A stretch of 64,000 nucleotides of DNA from Eledone cirrhosa (taxonomy: Eukaryota), in the NCBI GenBank assembly GCA_964016885.1, contig OZ024757.1, positions 18,414,001 to 18,478,000 on the forward strand, written 5' to 3'. The notes under the pieces are model-generated. The model was not told the origin of the DNA. It ran no database searches and saw only the letters and a list, made by a program, of their open reading frames with translations. Each line of letters starts with the position of its first letter. The first letter of the stretch is position 1. A program made the position numbers and the translations under genes. Positions 45,823 through 55,012 of this stretch are shown here, piece after piece.

Positions 45823-45900
45823 TTAAAATAACAGGTTAAAGTTTAAGCAAAGAATCGCTGCTTTCACCCTTAACGAGATCTTCTGAAACTAAAAAAATCA
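45823..45900 (-). mobile_element. Family C short repeat with hammerhead-like fold (CAGAAGA core)
   Basis: Copies at 26340-26385, 52260-52318, 54934-55012 and 60021-60072. Confidence 0.65.
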
Positions 45901-46067
45901 ATCTGGGAACGCAGAAGTAAATATTTCGAAAAACGTTGCAACCGAAGGAAGACAGCAAGACGATACTTTGGTTCGTGAAGACGTTACCTGGCAATGAACG
46001 GAAATAAGCGAAGATAATACGTCAGCAATGAGAACAATATTTGTCATAATGTCGTAATGCAGACAGC

Positions 46068-47024
46068 CAGACATACAGACAGATATTATAAGGGCGCGAC
46101 GTTATAGCTATGTATCTATCTAAAAGGTCAGACTAAGAAAGACAGAGATATCGCTAACCGGCGCCTAATGCGATCCCTAGAGCATTGAAAATTTGAAATA
46201 TTTTTGGCTCAAAACACTCACACGACCATAAGTATAACATGTGTAAAGTTTGAAAACAATCAGTTGGGTGGTTCTCGACTTTTAGGGGGACATACAGACA
46301 GACAGACAAACAGATATTATAAGGGCGCGACGTTATAGCTATGTATCTATCTAATAGGTCAGACTAAGAAAGACAGAGATATCGCTAACCGGTGCCTAAT
46401 GCGGTCCCTAGAGCATTGAAAATTTGAAATAGTTTTGGCTCAAAACACTCACACGGCCATAAGTATAACACGTGTAAAGTTTGAAAACAATCAGTTCGGT
46501 GGTTCTCGACTTTTAGGGGGACATACAGACAGACAGACAGACAGATATTATAAGGGCGCGACGTTATAGCTATGTATCTATCTAAAAGGTCAGACTAAGA
46601 AAGACAGAGATATCGCTAACCGGCGCCTAATGTGGTCCCTCGAGCATTGAAAATTTGAAATATTTTTGGCTCAAAACACTCACACGGCCATAAGTATTAT
46701 ATGTGTAAAGTTTGAAAACAATCAGTTCGGTGGTTCTCGACTTTTAGGGGGACATACAGACAGACAGATAGATATTATAAGGGCGCGACGTTATAGCTAT
46801 GTATCTATCTAATAGGTCAGACTAAGAAAGACAGAGAGATCGCTAACCGGTGCCTAATGCGGTCCCTAGAGCATTGAAAATTTGAAATATTTTTGGCTCA
46901 AAACACTCACACGGCCATAAGTATAACATGTGTAAAGTTTGAAAACAATCAGTTCGGTGGTTCTCGACTTTTAGGGGGACATACAGACAGACAGACAGAC
47001 ATTCTCTGTTTTAGATATATAGAT
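46068..47024 (+). repeat. Four tandem ~231-bp units of a Helentron/DINE-1-like non-autonomous element
   Basis: agatattataagggcgcg recurs at 46081, 46312, 46543 and 46770. Units carry catgtgtaaagtttg and (GACA)n, and the array ends tttagatatatagat. Confidence 0.8.
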
Positions 47025-47212
47025 ATATAATAGTAATAATAATAATAATATTAATAATAATAATAATAACAATGGCGTTGGAATTCGGAAGAAAAAGTAA
47101 AGATGTTGGTGTTTGATAGGAAATAAAATCTATTGGAGTGTTTATTGTTGTTCAGAGAATGATAAATATCAACGTGAATAGAGTAGAGATTATCTCTAGA
47201 CTGATAGGTTGT

Positions 47213-47920
47213 TCAACAACAACAATAGCAACAATAACAACAATAACAATAGCAACAACAATAGCAACAATAACAATAGCAACAACAATAATAACAATAA
47301 TAACAACAACATTAATAATAACAATAATAGAAACAACAATAGCAACAATAATAATAACAACAACAACAATAGCAACAACAATAGCAATAATAACAACAAT
47401 AACAATAGCAACAATAACAACAGCAATAATAACAATAATAACAACAATAATAATTACAATAATAATAACAACATTAATAATAACAATAATAGCAACAACA
47501 ATAGCAACGATAATAACAATAACAACAACAACATTAACAACAGCAACAACAACAAAAGCAACAATAATAGCAACAACATTAACAACAATAACAACCAAAG
47601 CGTTAGTAGTAGTTAGCAGCAGCAGTAACAACAACAACGATAATAACAATATCCACCATCACCATCACCACCATCAGCACCACCACTACCGCCGCCGCCA
47701 TCACCACCACCGCCACCACCATCACCACCACCAGCACCACCATCACCACCACCATCACCACCACCACCACCAACCGCCATCAGCACCACCAACCGCCATC
47801 ACCACCACCACCAACACCAGCACCACCACTACCGCCGCCGCCATCACCACCACCGCCACCACCATCAGCACCACCATCACCACCACAACTACCATCACCG
47901 CCACCACCATCACCACCACC
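47213..47920. repeat. (AAC/AAT)n then (CAC)n trinucleotide tracts
   Basis: Direct reading. Confidence 0.93.
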
Positions 47921-48023
47921 ATATATATATATATACAGAGAGAGAGAAAGATTTACTCAGATTAGCAATCTAGGGATATAAAACTTACTCTAACTCTTGA
48001 ACTAGAGTAACTGAAACAGCTAA

Positions 48024-48074
<51 letters not shown>

Positions 48075-48104
48075 TTCTACCTTAACTATATATATATATT
48101 TTTT

Positions 48105-48390
48105 TTTTATTTTTTTTACTTTATAGAAGGAGCTTCTACAGGACTAGTACTGTTTCATTCAGATGAAATCTTCAGGAAGCTGGGTGTCATATTAAGTTCT
48201 GGTATTTATACATTTAGGTAGTGGTAAGGGTGGGGGGGATTTTGGGGGGGTAGGATGGTATTTAGATACTGAATGAAACAGTACTAGTCCTGTAGAAGCT
48301 CCTTCTATAAAATAAAAAATGTCTTACTCTGCCATGTATTGAGTACCTTACTTACTGTGGTTATCCCCGACTCAACCCGGGACCTACGTA
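48105..48390. mobile_element. Family B hammerhead-bearing repeat with inverted arm
   Basis: 48120-48161 is inverted at 48270-48311. Related to 56750-56946 and 59910-60016. Confidence 0.8.
48131..48181 (-). ncRNA. Type I hammerhead (family B)
   Basis: AGCUUC-CUGAAGA-uUUC aucu GAAu-GAAA-CAG uacuaguc CUG-UA-GAAGCU. Confidence 0.8.
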
Positions 48391-48548
48391 TATATATATA
48401 TATATATAGTTATATATATAGTGTTCTACCTTATATATATATATATATATATAGTGTTCTACCTTATATATATATATATATATATAGTGTTCTACCTTAT
48501 ATATATATAGTTATATATATATATATACAGTATTCTGTATTCAGTATT

Positions 48549-48614
<66 letters not shown>

Positions 48615-49080
48615 ATATATATATATATATATATATACAGTATATATATATATATATATATACACACATAATATAATATAAATATATGAATACATACATT
48701 ACATTAATATATTTGATACATACATATGAATGTATAACATTCATCCCGTCAGAGTGTATATATCATATTACATAGGTATATAATATGTATATAAAATTAT
48801 TCGTTTTTATGTCTATATATAACACATCATTTATACATGTATGTAGAACGTGTATAACGTCTGTTATTTTATGTGTATATAAAATGATACATTTATGTCT
48901 GTGTATATAATGTAAACTTTATACAGCTGTGTATAGCAGGAATATCTATCATTTTATATGTATATATATAAAATGATAAATGTGTGTGTATCATATATAT
49001 ACGTGTATGTGTGCTTGTGTATATGTGTGTATTGTGTATGTATGTGTGTGCTTGTGTATGTGTGTGTGTATATGTATGTG

Positions 49081-52203: not shown

Positions 52204-52266
<63 letters not shown>

Positions 52267-52357
52267 TAACAGATTAAAGTCTAAGCAAAGAATCGCTGCT
52301 TTCACCCTTAACGGGATCGAGCCCTCTTTGGATTTTAGTCTTCACATTTATTATTAT

Positions 52358-52401
<44 letters not shown>

Positions 52402-52829
52402 GTACACACACGCACATATATATTTTCTTTTTCTCTATAATATATTTAATGCATTTTGAACGCGGGTTCATAAATTATTTATACTTACATACAGTCAATT
52501 AATGTTTAAACACATATACACACACATACATCATATCTATATACACACACATATACATCATGTACTTATACACACACACACACACACACACACACCATGT
52601 CCATATGCACACAGATATTAACACACATGAAACAATATCACACATACACACAGCTATCTCATTACATAGTCTGAGTCAATTAAAAAGTGTAATTCTGTTT
52701 AAACTGTTTCGCCAGCGAGATTAATTAGTTGTCTAGGTAATTAGTTAATTGGAGCATAGCATTTGTATTTAGTGTTGGTGTTGCGGCTGTTTACACCTGG
52801 CCAGCCCCCTACAATACAATCTCTTATCT

Positions 52830-53290
52830 TTGACCACCTCTCAATGATCAGGTCTGTTAACTGAACATCCCTTAACAATCAGGTTTGTTCACTGACCATC
52901 CCTTAACAATCAGGTCTGTTAACTGAACATCCCTTAACAATCAGGTCTGTTAACTGACCATCTCTTAACAATCAGGTCTGTTAACTGAACATCCCTTAAC
53001 AATCAGGTCTGTTAACTGAACATCCTTTAATAATCAAGCCTGTTCACTGAGAATCTCTTAACAATCAGGTATGTTCACTGACCATCCCTTAACAATCAGG
53101 TCTTTAATGACCATTCCTTAACAATCATGTCTGTTAACTGACCATCTCTTAACAATCATGTCTGTCCACTGAACATCTCTTAACCATCAGGTGTGTCCAC
53201 TGACCATCCCTTAACAATCAGGTCTGTTAACTGACCATCTCTTAACAATCAGGTCTGTCCACTGACCATCCCTTAACAATCAGATCTGTT
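52830..53290. repeat. 31-bp minisatellite, ~14-15 copies (ttaacaatcaggtctgttaactgaccatccc)
   Basis: Direct reading. Confidence 0.93.
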
Positions 53291-54170
53291 TACTTCAGCT
53301 GTAACCTGCAGAATAAGGGGGCGGGGCCGTAGAGAGATTTTGTCTGTTCACTGTTGCAGGGTTTTCGTGTTTCCATAAACAGTTAAAACCGCGATCAACC
53401 TGTCTGATTTGGCCAGATCACAGGTAAAATATTCATGTTCTGTCCACGGAGAGAGTAGTGGCTTTTACCTACTTTTAATGTCCAATGATCCTCCCACTTA
53501 TTAATGTTTCAGATTTATTTTTTCAACCCCCCACGCACACCACCACTCCGGTTTTATTCCACCATACCCCCACTCCACTTATTAAATGTTGCTTATCCAT
53601 CTCTGGTGATATTTTATTTTAAGTGGTAGCATTCCTGCGACAATTAATTTTCTTTAGACATCAAAATACATTATACATGACAAAGTACATTACTAGGAAT
53701 CCCATATGTTATAAAATAAAAGGATGGGTTGGGGTCTCAATATCTAAACTAAACGACTAATTCTGGTTTTTTTTTAAATTCAACGGAGACAACCTAGAAA
53801 AATTCCTGATTTCCCCACACCTACCTCCTACGGGACCCCAGAGTACGTAATCGGTCAGGGCTAAATTGGTCGCCGTAATTTATAGAATAGTGCATGTGTT
53901 GGTTAATTAATCAACGTAATTAATTGATTCATTAGATATTTATTACACAGCGTTTATTTTTGGCTGAAACTAACAGAAGGAATCTTTAGATAAACATTCC
54001 TGAGAAATTGGGAACTTTATTAAAAACAACATTTTACCTTGAATTAGATTTCAAATTATCCACAAAACGCTGTGTAGCATATTGTTAATTGATTAATTAA
54101 TAATTTAATATATATTAATTAGATTATATGTACATACACATACATATGTATATATATATATATATATGTA

Positions 54171-54210
<40 letters not shown>

Positions 54211-54892
54211 CACAGACACACACACACACATATATATATTTATATATATATATATATTGATATAAACTCGGTGATTATAAACGTTTCTCGGTCTCTCTCT
54301 TTCTTTATTTCTTTCTGTATATATAAATATGAATATATATATATGCATATATATATATATATACATATATACATACATGTATACAAACACACATAAACAA
54401 ACATACATACACACATAAACAAACATACATACAAGCATATATAAATGCATACATACACACAAACATACATACATACATACATACACACTCATACATACAC
54501 ACACACACTTATATACATATATACATACATACTTACACACACACACACACACACACATACGTATAAAATCCCTAAATGACGCTAGATATGGGGTTACAGG
54601 AACAGTTCTTATTAAATACGATAAAATTGTTTTAATTAAATCTTTTAATTAGATCCAAATTTTCAACGAATTTCGTATTAGAGAAATGTAGACTCCGTGG
54701 AGCCTGGATTAATTGACATTAAATGGCTGTGATTGAAGTAATATGTCAGTTGACGGCTCTTCAAAGGTTCAGCCATACCTTTTGTCTAATTAGTTCCACG
54801 GATACACCTAGTTTATTTGACACTACTAGTCAATCTACCCGTCACCGCATTTCTTCCGCCTCTTCGCTTTTTCAGATCTTTACACACGTGTG

Positions 54893-54933
<41 letters not shown>

Positions 54934-54934
<1 letters not shown>

Positions 54935-55012
54935 ATTTTAGTTTCAGAAGATCCCGTTAAGGGGGAAAGCAGCAATTATTTGCTTAAACTTTAATCTGTT
55001 CTTAGAATAAAT
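54934..55012 (+). mobile_element. Family C short repeat with hammerhead-like fold
   Basis: AGUUU-CAGAAGA-UCCC guuaa GGGG-GAAA-GCA..UGC-UU-AAACU. Confidence 0.65.

Follow-up and report, generated by a model that had tools for sequence, protein, structure and literature searches.

A type I hammerhead-like motif with A at core position 4 in a Penelope-like retrotransposon family of Eledone cirrhosa

Two complete motifs in the window

The window analysed is a 64,000-nucleotide stretch of the Eledone cirrhosa genome (GenBank assembly GCA_964016885.1, contig OZ024757.1, positions 18,414,001 to 18,478,000, forward strand). It contains two complete type I hammerhead-like motifs, copy 1 on the minus and copy 2 on the plus strand (Table 1), and in both the U normally found at position 4 of the core is replaced by A (A4). 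Judged by sequence, the carrier of both is a mobile element, and they lie in 3′ ends (pseudo-long terminal repeats, pseudo-LTRs) of a Penelope-like retrotransposon with Hydra-type protein motifs. A first-pass annotation of the window had described the positions, strands, stems, GAAA box and A at position 4 of the two motifs, all of which were confirmed on re-reading. It missed a second departure, G15.2-C16.2, which gives the triplet CUU, a poor triplet, as well as a 7-bp outer extension of stem I. As U4 of the CUGA uridine turn is A, the motif is not classed as a canonical type I hammerhead.

Intact copies of the family have three stems around the core, with stem I open. Stem I comprises 5 bp plus the outer 7 bp, stem II 3 bp, and stem III 4 bp including A15.1-U16.1. 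Both window copies are damaged, and the three-stem architecture is weaker in them than in intact copies. Copy 1 has a private C-to-T change that weakens stem II, together with mismatches in outer stem I. Copy 2 has lost the 5′ strand of outer stem I and carries G at 11.1, the state of a minor subfamily. Folding gave no advantage over shuffled sequence for copy 1 (z 0.88) or copy 2 (z -0.57). Rfam returned no hammerhead family at E≤10 for the intact copy (L043:4350-4490) and none among the matches listed for the window (150 of 758), and no match in PDB was found for the motif or for the open reading frame (ORF) described below. Because both regions match an intact copy of one family (Table 1), the two copies are not independent evidence.

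The carrier element

Searches covered the genome of 3.0 Gb. At loci matched by copy 2, the shared sequence extends far past the motif and ends in (TA)n, often with an inverted 5′-truncated copy attached. A whole unit is present at locus L041, and consists of the motif, the ORF, a 3′ untranslated region (UTR) of ∼1 kb, a second motif 3.3 kb on and (TA)n. The motif is found 199 nt before the ATG, and again ∼0.9-1 kb past the stop codon, of an ORF for a 709-aa reverse transcriptase (RT)-endonuclease. A protein search listed 100 copies at no less than 92% identity, and 20 of those with a 713-codon open frame were taken for analysis. The 709-aa ORF was present in all 20 fetched copies, which have a pairwise divergence of 2.3%. 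A genome search with a 57%-identical homologue recovered only the same family.

The single ORF encodes RT followed by a C-terminal GIY-YIG-type endonuclease, and the protein includes RWR (residue 37), DKT (115), GLYRDD (344), CxCX5C (564), Y.C...YIG (585), CxxC (662) and CxH (690). Pfam gave no match for the 709-aa ORF, and GIY-YIG was matched in the homologue P0103. The label Hydra-type refers to these protein motifs, with likeness to the published Hydra alignment judged by eye. Identity as a Naiad was rejected on domain order, as the endonuclease motif is C-terminal, and the motif is DKT rather than DKA. Partial tandems of pseudo-LTRs, inverted 5′-truncated copies and insertion at (TA)n were all seen for the element, and the mobile element that the first-pass annotation had proposed as a possible carrier was borne out by this Penelope-like unit. 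Two 3′ ends are preferred, ∼25 nt and ∼130 nt beyond the motif, both running into (TA)n (L043-L062 and many further loci).

Position 4 across the genome

A 24-mer of the motif with position 4 left free had 20,082 exact genomic matches, and its reversed control had none, so the motif is no product of chance. Position 4 is A in 19,868 of these (99%) and another base in 214. A hand count of the first 100 non-A copies gave T in 29, C in 31 and G in 40, a spread that is as expected from decay, with no excess of T. A4 is also present in 19 of 19 intact-ORF copies whose 3′ repeat lay in the fetched stretch, and in 22 of the 23 old copies recovered with flank anchors only, with C in the last one. The earlier proposal of a family-level core variant rather than decay, in either an atypical ribozyme or a mobile element with an inactive one, is supported on all three counts, and the genome-wide consensus is CAGA and not CUGA. 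The argument originally made for it, that the state is shared by two diverged copies, is weak in itself, the subfamilies of the two being close relatives, but A4 is shared by older subfamilies with an ORF remnant of 71% DNA identity.

A looser pattern gave 921 matches with a CUGA core genome-wide. A canonical sister subfamily was considered and rejected, as 28 of 30 CUGA loci are head-to-head inversion junctions by eye (19 found exactly by script, and 9 more with mismatches). At such a junction the two strands, antisense and sense, meet inside the core and spell CUGAAGA. A CUGA pattern that avoids junctions had 164 matches. The backgrounds of its first 30 loci are mixed, being young, middle or old; an inverted arm still adjoins some of these loci, and one is unrelated. 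No U4 ancestor of the family was found among the CUGA matches read. A descriptor search that insists on CUGA would pass over ∼20,000 motifs here and return instead ∼900 seemingly canonical ones at inversion junctions, most of them artefacts.

The palindromic 7-mer that surrounds position 4 is the exact site of many snap-back inversion junctions (L063-L092; 28 of the 30 sampled of 921). For comparison, all junction types together numbered ∼200 at each of two control sites. The U4-to-A change is equivalent to an inversion of this 7-mer. The lack of a T excess among the 100 non-A copies counted above gives no support to micro-inversion as the origin of A4.

Older subfamilies and constraint on the motif

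Patterns with other loops recovered older subfamilies (143 and 221 matches), the copies of which are 11-12% from their own consensus. One of them retains an ORF remnant with 71% DNA identity (1,269 nt) and ∼60% protein identity. A4 is present in 94 of the first 100 matches of the 221-match pattern, many of which are young copies changed at N7. Five subfamily consensuses were built from 22, 21, 6, 10 and 9 copies, the 68 of 230 anchored copies with enough upstream sequence. Across the five, none of the 50 structural (stem and core) positions is variable, compared with 11 of 28 loop positions including N7, 57 of 141 flanking positions (gaps counted once) and 9 of 30 in the nearest flank. C3-G8, G5, A6, A9, G12, A13, A14, A15.1-U16.1 and H17 are unchanged, and the free N7 is the only core position that changed among subfamilies. 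All subfamilies have the stem I internal loop and a loop 2 with G first and A last, the two partners of a possible tertiary contact, and the 7-bp outer stem I is conserved. The flank-anchored set has the same stems and core.

In the ORF-selected copies, variants found in at least 2 copies occur at 0 of 76 motif positions, against 65 out of 911 for the 3′ UTR (P 0.007), and at 0 of 50 when structure alone is counted (P 0.04). Private changes are at 0.7% in the motif and 0.8-0.9% in the 3′ UTR. The 20-copy alignment includes one spurious row (L055, where the 3′ repeat is absent from the fetched stretch), which mainly adds singletons. A pooled copy-versus-consensus figure is biased by the anchor pattern and was not used. 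Given the invariant structure and the variable loops and flank, the fold looks selected. The pattern points to selection on master copies, which would keep the motif, though what the alignments directly show is constraint and not fold.

Related elements

Related ORFs at 79 metagenome loci served as an outgroup, and 76 of these loci include the C-terminus. A descriptor with position 4 free found a type I hammerhead downstream in 49 of the 76, and in none of 76 reverse-complemented control tails. Among the 44 distinct motifs, U4 is present in 44, C15.2-G16.2 in 43, U10.1-U11.1 in 24 and U17 in 8; A4 and G15.2 are found in none. Within the clade, U-U at stem II and U17 are therefore nothing unusual, and the derived states are A4 and G15.2-C16.2.

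A model built from 27 of the 44 motifs (those of the short stem II type) gave one clear match on the intact element, the A4 motif (17.0 bits, E 0.003), with the next at 6.9 bits. Both damaged window copies were missed at E≤1. Covariation of the stems, the lack of which the first-pass annotation had named as part of a refutation, gave a divided answer. Inside the family the stems are unchanged and no compensatory change is seen, and there is one change on both sides, at 15.2-16.2, relative to the clade. Strong covariation in one alignment is circular, since its motifs were picked by a pairing descriptor, and was not used as proof.

Other hammerhead families in 1.16 Mb of loci from the same genome have U4, with C4 in a few matches. 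One isolated A4 outside the family is probably due to chance.

Interpretation of the A4 motif

Our preferred reading, to which we give a probability of about 0.45, is that the motif is a slow ribozyme under selection, a 3′ pseudo-LTR hammerhead in which two changes beside the active site were fixed in the lineage, U4 to A and the 15.2-16.2 pair from C-G to G-C, the fold having been kept since. Selection on master copies would maintain the fold and the catalytic guanosines. A4 would drop the contact of the uridine turn, U4 being in contact with the A6-N7 phosphate in the hammerhead (Perreault et al. 2011, PMC3088659), and would favour a competing helix in which the GAAA box pairs with the start of the core. 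Low activity of CUGA-turn mutants in another hammerhead (PMC9901934, see below) likewise speaks for weakening. In structure predictions, A4 extends the helix pairing the start of the core with the U-GAAA box, and mispairing of C3 with G12 rises to 0.39 with A4 compared with 0.02 with U4. If A4 both loses the contact and favours this helix, most transcripts would stay uncut and may thereby retain the 3′ end that target-primed reverse transcription requires, and slow or protein-assisted cutting could still free some unit-length RNA from tandem transcripts. Precedents for weak activity exist. A natural U4C variant is described as cutting slowly in vitro while still sustaining viroid infectivity (PMC3088659), and metazoan Penelope hammerheads are reported as generally poor cutters in vitro (Cervera and de la Pena 2014, PMC4209133).

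Several observations weigh against a selected slow ribozyme. The predicted cut shows no excess of 5′ junctions, with 182 there compared with 207 at a control site that lies 20 nt upstream in the same family, a count gauged against this internal site and not against a canonical family. Moreover, 8 of the first 30 cut-site matches are internal indels, and 0 of 20 intact-ORF copies start at the predicted cut. The hammerhead fold lies above the predicted minimum by 6 kcal/mol for the young consensus and by 10-11 kcal/mol for the old consensuses. As no compensatory change occurs within the family, the conservation is explained equally well by a fold and by a constraint on sequence, such as recognition by a protein. 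A single change, at N7, in a core of 12 positions makes only a thin case for catalysis, and two of the old-subfamily searches fixed parts of the core, with only the flank-anchored set free of this.

The lack of surplus ends at the cut site fits a dead motif as well as a slow one. A catalytically dead motif, kept only as a structured 3′ signal for the RT-endonuclease or as promoter or terminator sequence in the pseudo-LTR, is somewhat less probable than the slow ribozyme. In addition to the missing ends, two unfavourable changes adjoin the active site, a competing helix is predicted, and when all single and double mutants of another hammerhead were scanned, every mutant of the CUGA turn had low activity except for a swap of C3-G8 (PMC9901934). 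Naiads, according to the account of Craig et al. (2021, PMC8557442), amplify without canonical hammerheads. However, G8, G12, C3-G8, A6, A9, A13, A14 and A15.1-U16.1 have remained constant while the flanks of the subfamilies differ at 40% of positions, and only N7 has moved, the pattern expected of a working core.

It is improbable that the motif is instead a fully active variant, with A4 compensated by the flipped 15.2-16.2 pair, an extended contact between stem I and loop 2, or a host protein. The joint fixation of A4 and G15.2 in every subfamily, when both are absent from all 44 relatives, would be consistent with such compensation, as would the conserved outer stem I and ends of loop 2, and tertiary contacts are argued to offset core variants (PMC3088659). 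Yet no second mutation rescues CUGA-turn mutants in the complete double-mutant set of PMC9901934, though that set does not cover the combination of three changes seen here, and the ends are not enriched at the cut site.

A neutral relic, in which A4 arose by chance in one master, function was lost and all copies inherited the state, has a low probability. A chain of masters did give rise to all copies, pairwise divergence in the young subfamily is only 2.3% and compensatory changes are missing, but old subfamilies that are 11-12% from consensus, with a remnant at 71% DNA and ∼60% protein identity, hold all 50 structure positions amid changing loops and flank, and this comparison of consensuses has already largely refuted the idea. 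That the motif is a conserved hairpin with a chance likeness to a hammerhead is very improbable, for despite the Rfam and shuffling results, and despite a clade model that misses both window copies yet finds seven canonical motifs in the window, it occupies the site where 49 of 76 relatives have a hammerhead, shares U-U at 10.1-11.1 with the clade and is the sole clear match to that model in the intact element.

Relation to known systems

The Hydra clade as described in PMC8557442 resembles the element in having a single ORF with RW[K/R], DKT, a CxCX5C linker, a C-terminal GIY-YIG-type endonuclease, CxxC and CxH. It also has (TA)n targets, pseudo-LTR tandems, inverted 5′-truncated copies, and a type I motif near the 3′ end that often has U-U closing stem II. 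The unit found here is 3.3 kb with a 1-kb 3′ UTR, whereas Hydra elements are given as generally <3 kb. By eye, the family differs from Hydra-1_Obim in that paper, with another hammerhead and another ORF. Canonical hammerheads are called universal in the clade in its text, and the Hydra hammerheads tabulated in its supplement all have CUGA, in contrast to the fixed A4 and G15.2-C16.2; the motifs of the family had 0 matches in that supplement. With an A4 core and no other clear hammerhead match in the unit, the family, Hydra-type by its protein motifs, is an exception to the universal canonical hammerhead. Naiads, as presented in the same paper, also target (TA)n and attain copy numbers in the tens of thousands with no canonical hammerhead, but their endonuclease is N-terminal, and the element here has a C-terminal one and a complete three-way fold.

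Metazoan Penelope hammerheads as described in PMC4209133 are likewise of type I in pseudo-LTRs, present in thousands of mostly truncated copies and expected to have low activity. A family-level core variant, U3-A8, is reported there, a pair swap that keeps the core geometry, unlike U4A. The minimal dimer type of that paper differs from the motif here, which has a 4-bp stem III and a 9-nt loop, so that folding as a monomer is possible. Natural core variants in PMC3088659 also combine a core change with reduced activity, at the same position in the cited viroid U4C, and U10.1-U11.1 is described. The text of that paper covers U4C, A6C, U3-A8, U15.1-A16.1 and insertions, without U4A, and its figures could include a position-4 variant. 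Those variants are single sequences, whereas the state here is fixed in ∼20,000 copies over several subfamilies. No U4A hammerhead was found in the literature, a search that left figures and most supplements outside its reach, and earlier work may hold U4A rates or more Penelope variants.

The carrier is ordinary, and the core is unusual and long-kept. The role of hammerheads in Penelope-like elements is a puzzle, as they are called universal in the clade but cut poorly in vitro, and Naiads do well with no canonical ones. The lineage studied here, very successful in recent times, has borne an expected crippling core change through several subfamilies with the rest intact, and the motif offers a direct test of whether Penelope-like elements need cutting. 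If it is active, the known hammerhead core is widened, and if inactive, the fold is selected for something besides cutting. Should full activity be true, it would be a second solution for the hammerhead active site, in one of the most abundant retrotransposons of the genome.

Other features of the window

The element pieces that hold the two motifs, partial copies of the motif, the repeat around copy 1 and hammerhead-like motifs of other families are listed in Table 1.

Table 1. Hammerhead-like motifs, element pieces and enclosing repeat (window coordinates).
Feature	Position	Strand	Details
Type I hammerhead-like motif, copy 1	45840..45890	minus	Read 45890->45840; C3 45885, A4 45884; G15.2-C16.2; predicted cut after 45845
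Type I hammerhead-like motif, copy 2	54940..54990	plus	C3 54945, A4 54946; predicted cut after 54985
5′-truncated Penelope-like 3′ end holding copy 1, ends in (TA)n	45807..46024	minus	89% identity to intact copy L043 over 218 nt, including the TA run
5′-truncated 3′ end of same element holding copy 2, starts at (TG)n run	54938..55014	plus	92% identity over 77 nt to intact copy L043; homology by eye to ∼55022
Partial motif copy, from loop 2 on, without position 4	60016..60080	plus	Head to head with inverted piece of a different hammerhead family
Partial motif copy, from stem II on, without position 4	52236..52318	minus	Behind inverted piece of the element's own tail
Partial motif copy, from A13 on, without position 4	26308..26385	minus	
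5′ part of separate non-coding repeat enclosing copy 1	46043..47029	minus	4.1 tandem units of 231 bp; 3′ part at ∼45740-45823
Enclosing-repeat locus	45646-47029		Further loci: L006, L008, L039, L040, L148, L254, L324, L343, L379, L389, L398, L400
Canonical CUGA motif	56832-56887	minus	
Canonical CUGA motif	48128-48183	minus	
Canonical CUGA motif	26470-26535	minus	
Canonical CUGA motif	63734-63782	plus	
Canonical CUGA motif	26222-26288	plus	
Canonical CUGA motif	26672-26737	plus	
Canonical CUGA motif	50701-50766	plus	

The non-coding repeat that encloses copy 1, which may be Helitron-like, seems to have captured a Penelope 3′ end and spread it, and 13 of 303 anchored motif copies sit in this setting. 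The repeat has a GTCT microsatellite near its start, and in L008, L039 and L040 it ends with a GC-rich hairpin followed by CTAG. The region 59960-60080 is a chimera of two hammerhead families, and both are found in direct tandem at L027.

The seven canonical CUGA motifs were found with the outgroup model and belong to other repeat families. Two of them (56832-56887 and 48128-48183) have the U-U closure of stem II and a long loop 3, as in the A4 family. Hammerhead-like motifs with a CCGAAGA (C4) core are present at 21385-21455 (minus strand) and at L336:2717. The U3-A8 core pair, a variant already in print, was seen near 51357 (minus strand), in L015, L041 and L097, in L060, and in L227 and L229, a set that covers this genome and two metagenome relatives. 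A motif with CUGAGGA...GAAA at 37133-37213 (minus strand) has a long stem II and then G at 15.2. A homogeneous 22-bp tandem array occupies 24399-26173 (80.7 copies, 94% matches).

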